From positions 214 to 64,213 of the forward strand of contig JALVVL010000004.1 of the NCBI GenBank assembly GCA_027023425.1: a stretch of DNA of 64,000 nt, read 5' to 3'. Below, one piece after another: positions 2,935 to 58,655 of the stretch. The translations under genes and the position numbers were made by a program. Below the pieces are notes generated by a model. The model had not been told where the DNA came from, did no database searches, and saw only the letters and a program-made list of their open reading frames with translations. Positions within the stretch are counted from its first letter, which is position 1, and each line of letters opens with the position of its first letter. The DNA is from Anaerolineales bacterium (GTDB lineage Bacteria > Chloroflexota > Anaerolineae > Anaerolineales > DRMV01).

Positions 2935-3052
2935 AAACTACAATCCACAGATTACACAGATTTGCGCCGATTAGATTTGGGATAAACCGCAGATTACGCA
3001 GATTCCGCAGAAAAAATCTGTGAGAATCTGTGTAATCTGTGGATTCTTCTCA
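2935..3052. repeat. mosaic CACAGATT-type palindromic repeat
   Basis: ATCCACAGATTACACAGATT ... AATCTGTGTAATCTGTGGAT inverted arms. Confidence 0.85.
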
Positions 3053-3065
3053 CCAAGGAAATGCT

Positions 3066-4238
3066 ATGCCCTCTGCTGAAATCATCACCATCGGCACCGA
3101 ACTGCTGTTGGGCGAAATTGTGGACACCAACAGCCGCTACATTGCCCGCCGCTTGCGCGACGCGGGCATTGACCTTTACCGCACCACCACCGTGGGCGAC
3201 AACGCGGGGCGCATCGCGCAGGCCGTGCGCGAAGCCCTCCGCCGCGCCGACATCGTCATCACCACCGGCGGCCTCGGCCCCACCGTGGACGACCCCACCC
3301 GCAAAGCCATCGCCGACGCGGTGGGCGTGCCGCTGGAATTCCGCCCCGACCTGTGGGAAGACATCCAAAAACGCTTTGCCCAGTATGGGCGCAAGCCCAC
3401 CGAAAACAACCGGCGGCAGGCGTTCATCCCGCAGGGCGCGACGGCCATCCATAACCCCGTGGGCACTGCGCCCGCCTTCATCGTGGAAACCGACGACGGC
3501 GTGGTCATCTCCCTCCCCGGCGTGCCCCGCGAGATGGAATACCTTTTCACCCACGAGGTGCTGCCCTACCTGCAGCGGCGCTTCAACCTGCACGGCGTGA
3601 TTCTGGCGCGCGTGCTCCACACCGCCGGAATGCCCGAATCGGCAATTGACGAGCAGATTGCTGACCTGGAGCGCCTCAGCAACCCCACCGTGGGCTTGCT
3701 CGCGCACCCCGGCCAGGTGGACATCCGTATCACGGCCAAAGCCGAAAACGAAGAGGCCGCCGCAGCCATGATTGCCGAGGTGGAAGCCGAAATCCGACGC
3801 CGCTTGGGCACGCGCATTTACGGCGCGGACGGCGAAACGCTGGAAGGCGTGGTTTCGGCCATGATGGAAGCGCGCGGCATCACATTCACCGCTTTAGAAG
3901 CCGGCCTTGAAGGGCGTTTGCTCCAGCGGTTGGGGCGCGTGGCGGGCTTCTTGGGCGGCAAGATGGAAGCCAAGCCCATCCCGGCCGAGGAACTGCTTGA
4001 GCGCACGCGCACCTGCTGCGACAACCGCCAAGCGGACTGGGCGTTAGGCGTCAGCCTTTTCGCCGCCGAAGGTGCAAATCGGTGCTACGTGGTGCTCATC
4101 CGCCCCGAAGAGGAGGAAGTGCGCGAGTTTCACTACGGCGGCCCGCCGCAAATGGCGCCCGACTGGGCGACCAACATGGCGCTCACCCTCCTCCGCCGTC
4201 GCTTGCTAACGCAGGCATCCACAGAGTTCACCGAATAA
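3066..4238 (+). CDS. cinA: CinA-like protein (molybdopterin-binding/MocF domain; C-terminal PncC domain degenerate)
   Basis: AEIITIGTELLLGEIVDTN, TTGGLGPTVDD, LPGVPREM; FTALEAGLEG where AESCTGG is expected. Confidence 0.88.
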   Translation: MPSAEIITIGTELLLGEIVDTNSRYIARRLRDAGIDLYRTTTVGDNAGRIAQAVREALRRADIVITTGGLGPTVDDPTRKAIADAVGVPLEFRPDLWEDIQKRFAQYGRKPTENNRRQAFIPQGATAIHNPVGTAPAFIVETDDGVVISLPGVPREMEYLFTHEVLPYLQRRFNLHGVILARVLHTAGMPESAIDEQIADLERLSNPTVGLLAHPGQVDIRITAKAENEEAAAAMIAEVEAEIRRRLGTRIYGADGETLEGVVSAMMEARGITFTALEAGLEGRLLQRLGRVAGFLGGKMEAKPIPAEELLERTRTCCDNRQADWALGVSLFAAEGANRCYVVLIRPEEEEVREFHYGGPPQMAPDWATNMALTLLRRRLLTQASTEFTE

Positions 4239-4300
4239 AACCACAGATTACGCAGATTTCACAGATTTTTTCTGCGCAATCTGTGAAATCTGTAGTTTTT
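4218..4300. repeat. CACAGATT-type palindromic repeat
   Basis: AAAACCACAGATTACGCAGATTTCACAGATT ... AATCTGTGAAATCTGTAGTTTT. Confidence 0.8.
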
Positions 4301-58400: not shown

Positions 58401-58576
58401 CCGGGGCGTCCGTTGGCGGTAGGAGGGCCTTCGTAAAAGACAAATTCGGGGCCGCCGCGGCGCGTCTCCTCGGTTTTGTGGAAAATGTCGTGCTTTTTCC
58501 AAAATTCCAAGTGCCGCTCTTCCATTTTGGGGAGCGTCACCTTCGGCGGAACTGGTTTGAAGGGTGACTGGGACAT
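55409..58576 (-). CDS. ileS: isoleucine--tRNA ligase (type 2)
   Basis: FYEGPPTANGRPGVHH, GWDTHGLPVE, WTTTPWTL, KMSKS; Ile T-box upstream. Confidence 0.97.
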   Translation of the reverse strand: MSQSPFKPVPPKVTLPKMEERHLEFWKKHDIFHKTEETRRGGPEFVFYEGPPTANGRPGVHHVLSRSFKDIFLRYRVMRGYHIIRRGGWDTHGLPVEIEVEKKLGFTSKRQIEEFGVAEFNKLCRQSVFEYIQDWEKLTERIAFWVDLENAYVTYHNEYIESEWWILKQFWEQGLIYRGHKVVPYCPRCGTPLADHEVALGYKETEDPSVYVRLPLMDDPDTALLVWTTTPWTLPANVAVAAHPKVTYVKVKRQLPNGEHEYLIVAKPLVEKVFGDEKVEIVAEFPGKALKGKRYQPLYTFVVPDKPAYFVVLADFVTTEDGTGLVHMAPAFGEDDMEMARKYDLPIISTVKPDGTLVSAVRPWAGMFFKDADPYIIEDLQKRGLLFRSGKYTHTYPFCWRCGTPLLYYARPTWYIRTTAKKDRLVALNEKINWVPPHIKHGRFGNWLENNIDWALGRERYWGTPLPVWQCDECGYQHAVGSVAELSEMAGRDLSGLDLHRPYVDEVELTCPKCGGKMHRVPELIDVWFDSGAMQVAQWHYPFENQEIFKKQHPADYICEAVDQTRGWFYSLHAISTLLFDDIAFKNVVCLGLILDENGQKMSKSRGNVVDPWDVINVHGTDALRWYLYTASPPGDNRRFSVNLVGEVVRNFLLTLWNVYSFFTTYAALDGWQPNSETKPEYNELDRWLRSELHSLVKRVTEAYENYDALGATRPIEEFVERLSNWYLRRSRRRFWKSGSDADKHAAYSTLYEALTTLSKLLAPSTPFIAEEIYQNLVRATDPSAAESVHLADWPEYDEAAIDEKLNRDMELVIKLASLGHAARNKAGIKVRQPLQEIAFAVGRAFEQDVVTRYADLLADELNVKRVRLLGGRGEAVSYSLKPLPKQLGQKYKSLFPKIRQAILALDPQEAGERLLAGEPVTVTVDGEEYAIQPDEVEVIVSAHPGLTVASEGAYLAALNTEITPELKQEGIARDFVRWVQNARKEAGLELSDRIHLYYQAPDEIAKAVEAYRNYIMGETLAVEMTAAAPPDDAFVSTAVKNVVIGIKKSTPDEQ

Positions 58577-58620
58577 GATTACCTCCGAAAAATTGGGCTT
58601 TTGCAGGGGGCGTACAGCGC

Positions 58621-58655
58621 CGCAATTCGCAACTCGCAATTCGCAACTCGCAATT
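58621..58655. repeat. 5 x CGCAA(C/T)T heptamer
   Basis: CGCAATT CGCAACT CGCAATT CGCAACT CGCAATT in the ileS leader. Confidence 0.9.

Follow-up and report, generated by a model that had tools for sequence, protein, structure and literature searches.

The intergenic spaces of the genome analysed here, that of a hot-vent bacterium of the Anaerolineales, contain patchwork arrays of short tandem repeats, and the unit types that build these arrays in the window (the whole stretch of 64,000 nucleotides submitted to analysis) are the repeat arms of small gene cassettes. Each cassette has a single small gene, about 125-140 codons long, enclosed by two mutually inverted arms made of about three, sometimes many more, tandem units of 7-10 bp. 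The gene codes for a GxxExxY nuclease (PD-(D/E)xK superfamily) or for a four-helix-bundle protein (23S-rRNA-IVS-protein family). Since the module motifs of the window flank these two types of genes, the window arrays are gene-less, non-autonomous relatives of the gene-bearing cassettes. They probably represent derivatives of the two small-cassette families that have lost the gene, i.e., selfish elements moved by a nuclease, which have grown by landing and recombination.

Sixteen intergenic loci of the window, amounting to about 5.1 kb, consist of such arrays of a few types of 7-10-bp units, in good agreement with the sequence-only reading of this DNA, in which the same modules had been seen to recur at about 18 loci over some 5 kb. 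The first k-mer masks, made of 9-mers occurring in at least 60 copies and 12-mers occurring in at least 10 copies, also caught GC-rich coding words, and a density and token rule was added to the masks for the calling of arrays. Under this stricter rule, the genome-wide k-mer decomposition that had been proposed along with the sequence-only reading yielded 249 arrays, which represent 4.0% of the DNA, and 11 loci of the window were retained, for a total of 4,260 bp. Tandem Repeats Finder returned 159 rows in the window, clustered and nearly all with a period of 7-10. By exact count, the 31-mer singled out at the outset occurs 6 times in the window (5 + 1) and 107 times in the genome, the 20-mer 11 times (5 + 6) and 232 times, and CACAGATT 70 times and 1,427 times, respectively. 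When up to 2 mismatches are allowed, the 20-mer is found 23 times in the window, versus 0 times in each of 100 dinucleotide shuffles, and the commonest 10-mer of the genome, AAACCACAGA, reaches 608 copies versus about 4 expected for an average 10-mer. The loci of the window are the following, with the strand indicated where one applies:

2942-3045: S-type arm and CGCAGATT/AATCTGTG hairpin, between two same-strand genes
4236-4292: single gene-less hairpin with facing CRCAGATT arms
8102-8437: CGCAGAG/GACGCCAAG runs, CACAGAAA-type hairpin, S arm (reverse), CACAGATT arm, eight copies of ACGACCTA and a CCCCAAT/CCCTCA run, downstream of a lutB-like gene
12464-13024: 561-bp array between a pfkB-kinase gene and a pseudouridine-glycosidase-like gene, whose junction it fills
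14706-14755, plus strand: solo run of the CGCAAYT heptamer (6.7 copies), a unit which is the downstream arm of the four-helix-bundle cassette L004
16229-16309, plus strand: CCAAGAGCG run, then AATCCCT-type run (solo arms)
17632-18187: 556-bp array; the orthologous site of genome G001 measures about 270 bp, is built otherwise and includes a run of N
25223-25543: array with facing CACAGATT arms, between convergent genes
26906-27304: 399-bp array; the orthologous site of G001 is a different array of 584 bp with an unrelated MITE inside
35425-35986: tandem array with a 145-bp period (3.1 copies, 95% match), the unit comprising S arm, hairpin and CTCTGCG run, upstream of nusA
39381-39855: heptamer, GGTCGT, S, CACAGAAA-type, CTCTGCG and CTTGGCG runs
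44633-45191: 559-bp array upstream of grpE, after a same-strand gene (hrcA by position only)
46631-46705: short AAACCACAG run and right arm, just past two tRNA-Ala genes
49990-50295: array located 3' of leuS, between convergent genes
53313-53977: 665-bp array beginning with 9.5 copies of AGGTCGTT, with one separate REP-like element at about 53400-53640
58621-58655, minus strand: five AATTGCG/AGTTGCG heptamers that form a solo arm in the 5' leader of ileS, after the T-box leader and ahead of the start codon

All of these arrays stand between protein-coding genes, beside tRNA genes or, in one case, in an mRNA leader. Gene calls extend over 82% of the genome and overlap only 11% of the array bases; these gene calls, like the strand calls for neighbouring genes, are crude and derived from ORFs alone. 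At the gathering threshold, Rfam matches in the window correspond to the T-box leader and two tRNAs only. No match to GxxExxY, four-helix-bundle or Y1-transposase proteins was found on the contig of the window, which is consistent with the initial statement that no enzyme gene lies in any of its arrays. A CRISPR array, defined by repeats of 24-48 bp and spacers of similar length, was also considered and rejected, the units being 7-10 bp long, directly tandem or facing, and devoid of unique spacers.

Gene-bearing cassettes occur elsewhere in the genome, where the search for arms enclosing an ORF, recommended by the sequence-only reading, brought out one GxxExxY gene and three four-helix-bundle genes with inverted arms. 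The sole GxxExxY gene is located between gatA and gatB, with a left arm composed of AAACC and three CGCAGATT-type units and a right arm that is its inverse. The three four-helix-bundle genes, all outside the window, possess inverted arms of ACGACCTA, GATGCCC and AATTAGG/CGCAATT, and one of the three proteins matches PDB entry 2gsc (E = 1.1e-16). Depending on the locus, in this genome or its relatives, GxxExxY genes are flanked by units of the CRCAGATT, CACAGAAA/CACAGAG, CGCAGAG or CGCAAAG type, e.g., CACAGAAA/CACAGAG arms in genomes G009 and G012, CGCAGAG arms in loci L151 and L152, CACAGAG arms in L154 and CGCAAAG arms in L173. Four-helix-bundle genes are associated with units of the ACGACCTA, GATGCCC, CGCAATT or CCCCAAT type, e.g., GAGGGATT/CCCCAAT arms in G006. 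Most of the 31 four-helix-bundle loci listed display inverted tandem arms with units of 7-9 bp (about 22 are clear by eye), and the arm sequence is specific for each cassette and differs from one cassette to another, a diversity that argues for structure or a putative co-evolving recognition over one fixed site. To our knowledge, this family is devoid of any known enzymatic activity.

With respect to the GxxExxY genes, at least two CAGAT upstream and at least two ATCTG downstream occur in 51 of 80 loci, distributed over at least 8 named phyla, and strict triple arms are present on both sides in 26 of the 80. GxxExxY and four-helix-bundle genes are thus accompanied by such motifs, as the sequence-only reading had stated for other genomes, both in the genome itself and beyond it. 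Arm types change 10 times along the tree of GxxExxY proteins, versus at least 13 times in each of 200 shuffles, and the CRCAGAT arm type travels with one nuclease clade across phyla. Moreover, cassette genes are oriented like the host gene upstream of them: at loci whose two neighbours lie on one strand, the cassette gene has their orientation in 59 of 67 cases (32 of 36, 13 of 15 and 14 of 16). The window itself is likely to hold the remains of such a layout in the form of arm pairs joined directly as hairpins of about 60 bp, solo arms, and composites.

The modules had been described as assembled in differing order and orientation. The mosaic character is indeed found but the order is not free, since a preferred super-unit recurs, in which an S arm is followed by a hairpin, a CTCTGCG run and a CCTTGGCG run. 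Composite sequences of about 105 bp occur with the same junctions at more than 100 loci, and units of 104-190 bp are duplicated in tandem within arrays, so that local duplication contributes alongside any transposition. An ungapped hairpin search gave 20 matches only, the spacing of units being variable, and was superseded by a search at the level of units, which detected 183 facing pairs of the CRCAGATT type in the whole genome, 9 of them in the window, as anticipated from the facing pairs noticed at first sight. Among the pure-arm pairings of these 183 pairs, CGCAG/CACAG is found 64 times and CACAG/CACAG 32 times, versus only once for CGCAG/CGCAG, a composition compatible with amplification from one master form. 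One unit of 146 nt is predicted to fold strongly on both strands (z scores of -6.5 and -5.3), and the hairpin terminates in a T run. The hairpin ends of 142 oriented copies, 70 of which were inspected by eye, showed no target-site duplication.

Comparison of filled and empty sites among relatives, another check suggested at the start, reveals a marked turnover of the arrays. The two genes separated by the 561-bp array at 12464-13024 abut or overlap in the relatives G004 and G006, and the gap corresponding to the array upstream of grpE (44633-45191) measures about 0-140 bp in G004 and G009. Even between two species of one genus, namely this genome and G001, the arrays have been rebuilt and orthologous arrays are unconserved. 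The only clean nested insertion seen is that of an unrelated MITE of 264 bp within an array of a relative, and no module-type insertion event with a target-site duplication was caught in this comparison. At the lutB locus, downstream synteny is absent in the relatives and no empty site was found; similarly, gatA does not precede gatB in G004, which offers no empty gatA-gatB site. The view of the arrays as non-autonomous elements, shuffled in trans and inserting into one another, is partly upheld, as regards their kinship with gene-bearing cassettes and their turnover; the array grammar and local duplication speak against free shuffling.

The gatA-gatB junction also provides indications of horizontal transfer. 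The block comprising gatCAB and the cassette is 93% identical between G000 and G006, versus 66-76% for neighbouring genes, and in G009 and G012 the same site harbours a different GxxExxY cassette between flanks that are 94-96% identical. Overall, two types of GxxExxY cassettes lie, in two genera, between flanks with 93-96% identity, and it appears that transfer of the cassette included its gatCAB flanks. In this respect, the arrays may mark sites of recent horizontal exchange.

Other explanations have to be weighed against this body of evidence. The arrays could consist of ordinary simple-sequence repeats, immobile and produced in place by slippage and unequal recombination, with a shared mutational bias accounting for their likeness. 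The tandem disposition of the 7-10-bp units, the 145-bp unit repeated 3.1 times with a 95% match, the runs of S+H units at a spacing of 104-190 bp and the variation in array length at fixed sites between congeners all conform to such an origin, which is nevertheless unlikely in view of the specific composites sharing the same junctions at more than 100 loci, the association of one gene clade with the same arms across 8 named phyla, the presence of 560-bp arrays where the junctions of relatives are tight, and the patchy distribution of the 20-mer, which is present in 13 of 41 related genomes and in two genera of the family but absent from four others. We also regard as improbable that the arrays are RNA elements serving the host, whose arm stems would be kept in operon transcripts as RNase III sites, insulators or terminators. 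Strong hairpins are predicted on both strands and end in a T run, the cassettes lie in operon junctions and are co-oriented with host genes, and the stem of the Coxiella 23S rRNA intervening sequence (IVS) is reported to be cut by RNase III (PMC4990558). However, the orientation of arrays and hairpins bears no relation to the strand of adjacent genes, the arrays are distributed among convergent, divergent and tandem gaps just as gaps in general are, consensus scans of two arrays retrieved 0 promoter-like and 0 terminator-like sites, and orthologous arrays are unconserved between congeners. On the sense strand, G:U and A:C mismatches number 7 and 9, respectively, in 78 unit pairs; without an excess of G:U, a role as RNA stem is therefore unsupported by the mismatch test. 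The predicted energy of the RNA duplex favours the sense strand at 41 and the antisense strand at 38 of 79 loci, as calculated with flanks of 135-150 nt giving over-long duplexes. None of the 11 sequencing runs listed for this DNA is an RNA run.

REP/BIME systems consist of hundreds of short intergenic palindromic units organized in mosaics, with one or a few RAYT genes that have inverted copies of these units on either side. The arrays share with them the large number of short intergenic units, the mosaics resembling the BIMEs of E. coli, and the existence of one or a few genes flanked by the same units inverted, and the genome encodes a Y1_Tnp protein of 148 codons. Mobilisation by a RAYT (Y1 transposase) is very improbable all the same, because the defining link between gene and flanking repeats, when tested, was lacking: the Y1_Tnp gene is flanked by different palindromes of its own (8-16 copies in the genome, once in the window), and none of the modules first described occurs in its flanks. 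In addition, the gene associated with the present units is not a Y1/HUH transposase and the units are internally tandem. An assembly artefact of a short-read metagenome bin is scarcely credible either. Logan contigs of 4 DNA runs halt at the edges of the array at 12464-13024 without any of them spanning it, and other contigs of the genome contain runs of N. Against this, the array boundaries are the same in the 4 runs from 4 studies, some contig pieces inside this array match without mismatch, the same modules and hairpins exist in independent genomes of two genera, and dozens of unrelated assemblies, some with contigs of 3 Mb, show the same arms next to their GxxExxY genes. In practice, the arrays break short-read assemblies and, since contigs stop at their edges, the internal order of the long arrays rests on one assembly, that of a short-read MAG.

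Returning to the derivation of the arrays from nuclease-moved cassettes, the movement mechanism that we infer would involve the following steps. A cassette would behave as a selfish element settling in operon junctions and expressed by read-through from the host gene. The GxxExxY nuclease would recognise its own arms through their phased units, spaced by about one helical turn, and would cut at or near these units, the cassette being then moved or copied by repair in a homing-like manner. Loss of the gene would leave hairpins still able to be mobilised or copied, and the arrays would enlarge by further landings beside existing arms, and also by unequal recombination or slippage among their many similar units. 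A single GxxExxY gene accompanies about 180 hairpins in this genome, and their ongoing mobilisation is therefore hypothetical.

The features of the GxxExxY protein are compatible with such a function. Residues D71, E81 and K83 are invariant across 16 sequences, and the AlphaFold model (pLDDT 90) has Cas4 SSO0001, 3ijm, Hjc and lambda exonuclease as its nearest solved folds; no solved structure matching the protein by sequence was found. The protein thereby resembles PD-(D/E)xK homing endonucleases and minimal nucleases of the Cas4/Hjc type in both fold and D...ExK triad, and its gene, like that of a homing endonuclease, travels with conserved flanks. It differs in that no intron or intein is involved, the putative homing site being the dispersed arms of the element itself. 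A search for the GxxExxY/PDDEXK_3 family gave 6,075 clusters at E ≤ 0.001, and the function of the family was given as 'Unknown' in a 2012 survey (PMC3424549); a role as the element's own enzyme would offer this very large family a testable, putative function. The GxxExxY protein matched 8 plasmids, none of them cyanobacterial, and a tblastn search of plasmids with one four-helix-bundle protein gave no match.

The classic intervening sequence (IVS) of 23S rRNA genes interrupts helix 25 or 45 and is removed by RNase III. The IVS of Coxiella burnetii, as described in the literature, contains a small four-helix-bundle (S23p) ORF between complementary termini forming a 28-bp stem, lies within a transcribed host unit, is called selfish and is thought to have been acquired horizontally (PMC4990558). 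The three four-helix-bundle cassettes of the genome, none of them in the window, similarly display an S23p (PF05635/TIGR02436) ORF between complementary termini. In contrast to the IVS, the present elements lie between protein genes instead of in 23S rRNA, their arms consist of tandem 7-10-bp units, a second and unrelated gene family, the GxxExxY nuclease, shows the same layout, and amplified copies devoid of a gene account for 4% of the genome. The classic IVS may accordingly be regarded as one case of a wider design, and a concrete origin is proposed for a fraction of the genome otherwise labelled "simple repeats".

Intergenic heptamer and octamer repeats have been known in the literature since 1990. 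The available parts of two sources report GGGAATC in Xanthomonas, with 70-75 convergent heptamer pairs on opposite strands, and GGGGA(C/T)T in Nostoc/Anabaena (PMC4692102), as well as TAACTGA in Beggiatoaceae, cyanobacteria and Bacteroidetes, which are suspected of having spread horizontally, with 'no mechanism evident' (PMC4679880). These repeats and the cyanobacterial STRR resemble the present arrays as intergenic tandem 7-mers with a patchy distribution among lineages, and the CCCYAAT unit of the window, when reverse-complemented and rotated, equals the Nostoc unit. No link of the heptamers to four-helix-bundle or nuclease genes was found in the available parts of both sources. A GGGAATC x3 pattern was absent from 401 sampled genomes of one gammaproteobacterial class, a sample that says nothing about Xanthomonas. 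We suggest tentatively, as an idea which could well prove wrong, that phylum-spanning mobile cassettes, whose PD-(D/E)xK nuclease or, in parallel, four-helix-bundle protein would recognise the phased repeats of its own arms, are expressed by operon read-through, and that their amplified arms are the common origin of cyanobacterial STRR, Xanthomonas GGGAATC and possibly TAACTGA, thereby offering a testable explanation for repeats that lack a mechanism. The sequence-only reading had pointed to an undescribed system, and small repeat-armed cassettes of this kind do appear, from the loci compared, to be spread across many bacterial phyla with no description of GxxExxY or four-helix-bundle cassettes found in the literature searched.

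MITEs are defined by terminal inverted repeats and a target-site duplication, and derive from transposase-encoding IS. Similarly to MITEs, short non-coding copies with inverted ends outnumber here the gene-bearing parent, but the module elements are devoid of visible target-site duplication, the parent gene encodes a small nuclease and no known transposase, and the arms are iterated units instead of unique terminal repeats. Genuine MITEs with target duplications (7-bp TCAGTAA) are present in the window as well. Over the span occupied by the arrays, four further repeat loci belong to other, MITE-like families (20259-20413, 32884-33021, 43823-43975 and 23006-23465), and a fifth repeat locus is present at 46969-47104.

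The mosaic of short modules reported between the genes of the window by the sequence-only reading is confirmed. Its modules occur where that reading placed them and far above chance, a 20-mer module with up to two mismatches being found in 23 copies in the window versus none in 100 shuffles, and the count of about 18 loci and 5 kb made by eye corresponds to 16 module-family loci covering ~5.1 kb. Of the 159 rows that Tandem Repeats Finder returned for the window, nearly all have a period of 7-10 and lie clustered in intergenic gaps, among housekeeping genes comprising ileS with its T-box leader, leuS, nusA, infB, pnp and dnaK. 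The genome itself (G000) is a bin of 2.2 Mb in 45 contigs, of which C4 contains the window (214-64213), with 57% G+C, and the sequencing runs that hold it are labelled as hydrothermal-vent metagenomes. Its most frequent 10-mer occurs in 608 copies and CACAGATT in 1,427 copies genome-wide, and a strict rule delineates 249 arrays totalling 87,070 bp, or 4.0% of the genome. Crude gene calls, which span 82% of the genome, overlap only 11% of the array bases. The arrays divide among tandem, convergent and divergent gaps in the same proportions as gaps overall.

The interpretation of the repeats as cassette arms devoid of a gene is well supported, the cassettes being small GxxExxY or four-helix-bundle genes enclosed between two inverted arms of tandem units. 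The genome contains one GxxExxY gene (TIGR04256, 143.5 bits) and three four-helix-bundle genes (TIGR02436), all outside the contig of the window, in agreement with the earlier statement that no enzyme gene lies in the arrays. The cassettes of the genome are organized as follows:

GxxExxY cassette, between gatA and gatB: left arm made of AAACC and three CGCAGATT-type units, right arm its inverse
Four-helix-bundle cassette 1, between pheS and pheT: inverted ACGACCTA-type arms
Four-helix-bundle cassette 2: GATGCCC-type arms
Four-helix-bundle cassette 3: AATTAGG/AATTGCG upstream, CGCCATT/CGCAATT downstream

These arms account for four of the modules. In the related genomes G009 and G012, the gatA|gatB site harbours a GxxExxY gene between CACAGAAA/CACAGAG arms, other genomes of the order possess GxxExxY genes between CGCAGAG, CACAGAG and CGCAAAG arms, and the related genome G006 has a four-helix-bundle gene between GAGGGATT/CCCCAAT arms. 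Because such arms are found in both the window's genome and its relatives, each major module can be assigned to an arm type of one of the two cassette families, which bears out the earlier statement that these motifs flank GxxExxY and four-helix-bundle genes elsewhere. The window contains solely gene-less forms of the cassettes; how repeats and cassettes move is a matter that we infer.

The arrays obey a grammar with parts of variable length, as deduced from a conserved unit, a preferred order of modules in the bigram counts and the duplication of whole units. Facing CRCAGATT-type arms separated by at most 25 bp form 183 pairs in the genome, nine of them in the window. The pairs are polar: a pure CGCAG arm faces a pure CACAG arm in 64 pairs, 32 pairs are CACAG/CACAG and a single one CGCAG/CGCAG. 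Most of the polarity-oriented copies share a conserved unit of ~105 bp, in which an S arm (ATCC followed by three 10-bp units) is joined through a short linker to a hairpin with a GGTTTTT end; next comes another unit, or a CTCTGCG run and then a CCTTGGCG run. Whole units are duplicated in tandem, e.g., 145 bp repeated 3.1 times at 35520-35972 of the window. A free shuffling of modules is contradicted by this preferred order, seen in both the oriented copies and the bigrams. Hairpin polarity shows no relation to the strand on which adjacent genes lie (25 vs 28 in '++' gaps, 24 vs 21 in '--' gaps).

A REP/RAYT system mobilised by a Y1 transposase would also yield abundant intergenic palindromes, and the genome does possess a RAYT/IS200-like Y1_Tnp gene of 148 codons (contig C10, 100266-100607, locus L177). 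However, this gene is bordered on both sides by REP-like palindromes of its own, a family of only 8-16 copies in the genome, and the arrays are therefore not a REP/RAYT system, an identity ruled out by these separate, low-copy palindromes. One copy of the Y1-linked repeat occurs in the window at ~53400-53640, within the 53313-53977 array. Promoter and terminator scans of two arrays found nothing, no G:U bias was detected on the sense strand, and Rfam recognized in the window a T-box and two tRNAs only. An assembly artefact, which would concern the internal order of the long arrays, is unlikely.

A total of 6,075 relatives of the GxxExxY protein were found at E <= 0.001, those listed all containing PF13366, and D71, E81 and K83 are invariant among 16 aligned sequences. 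The folds nearest to its AlphaFold model (pLDDT 90) are Cas4 SSO0001, 3ijm, Hjc and lambda exonuclease; a sequence search of solved structures gave no match. Among 80 GxxExxY loci from public genomes, 51 display at least two CAGAT upstream and at least two ATCTG downstream, and 26 are flanked on either side by strict triple arms, whose termini are mostly ATCC. The CAGAT arm type is distributed over eight named phyla, and several N- or C-terminal tails of the alignment (PQITQI, KSA) read as translated arms. The protein tree shows clustering by arm type, with 10 changes required vs at least 13 in 200 shuffles, as counted with 64 labelled rows among 105, the 41 unlabelled ones being taken as 'other' and seven further rows having been dropped for internal stops. 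From the order of the window, 61 genomes were sampled, and 39 possess the gene, in as many as 12 matches per genome. Where both neighbours share a strand, as judged from open frames only, the cassette gene lies on that strand at 32 of the 36 outside GxxExxY loci, 14 of the 16 order-level GxxExxY loci and 13 of the 15 four-helix-bundle loci, an orientation that fits expression by host-operon read-through.

Of 41 related genomes, 13 contain the 20-mer pattern. It is present in the window's own genus, in seven of the nine genomes representing a second genus of the family and, with a few copies, elsewhere; four further genera of this family yielded none. The comparison of filled and empty sites suggested by the sequence-only reading showed junctions filled by arrays in G000 to be tight in the related genomes G004, G006 and G009. 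A kinase and a glycosidase gene that in G000 have a 561-bp array between them are contiguous or overlapping in both G004 and G006, and the gap of ~480 bp upstream of grpE corresponds to only ~0-140 bp in the genomes G004 and G009. Although G001, from the same genus, is 89-94% identical in the flanking DNA, the arrays at two common sites differ in length and composition, one of the G001 arrays containing an unrelated MITE.

Exchange of cassettes at a site, and their transfer between genera along with their flanks, is most strongly indicated at gatA|gatB. The gatCAB and cassette block (G000 contig C22, ~26100-30025, region of locus L001) is 93.2% identical over 3.9 kb to contig C33 of G006, whereas the neighbouring genes within that 20-kb stretch, which lie on other contigs, share 66-76% identity. 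This points to an essential operon having been replaced recently by horizontal transfer between two genera. In G009 and G012, the gatA and gatB flanks are 94-96% identical to those of G000, but the GxxExxY cassette between them is another one, its arms being of the CACAGAAA type. The same stretch occurs on contigs C176 and C164 of G009, with the GxxExxY gene intact on one and frameshifted on the other, which suggests that the bin mixes strains or that the stretch is duplicated. The gatA gene of G000 seems to run into the left arm and terminate there (tail ...KPQITQIAQK), and that of G009 ends ...AAFTAKV ahead of the arm; if the former does read into the arm, the insertion replaced the final codons of an essential gene.

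A literature search found no paper describing these cassettes or linking the repeats to GxxExxY or four-helix-bundle genes. In the excerpts consulted, the function of PDDEXK_3 is listed as unknown, with multiple transfers (PMC3424549), a 23S_rRNA_IVP gene is recorded between cmr3 and cmr2, RNase III cuts a 28-bp stem in the Coxiella IVS (PMC4990558), and intergenic heptamers are described as unexplained in Xanthomonas/Nostoc (PMC4692102) and Beggiatoaceae (PMC4679880).

Other repeats also occur in the window. A palindromic element of ~150 bp with ends CAGGAYYTGCGCAGTT...AACTGCGTAAGTCCTG, separate from the modules, is found at 32866-33022, 20259-20413 and 43823-43975, one copy lying between grpE and dnaK. 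At 32866-33022 the flanking TCAGTAA is duplicated and the same G001 site is cleanly devoid of the element, making it an ordinary MITE whose target duplication is 7 bp long. Another repeat of ~264 bp, with a CCCTCCCTTAGTAAGGGAGGG-type hairpin (23045-23310), is represented in G001 by at least seven copies with 87-95% identity, including one that lies within a module array of that genome. High-copy 12-mers devoid of the reported modules occupy 46969-47104. The ileS leader (58621-58937, minus strand) comprises a full T-box (108.5 bits), then five AATTGCG/AGTTGCG heptamers, then the start codon. At 13974-19820 the coding strand is strongly T-rich, with an AT skew down to -0.42, and the long ORFs lack Pfam matches except for a YfhO-like C-terminal piece; a run of 6.7 CGCAACT units (14706-14752) lies inside one such ORF call, the surrounding stretch aligning with G001 at 91%.
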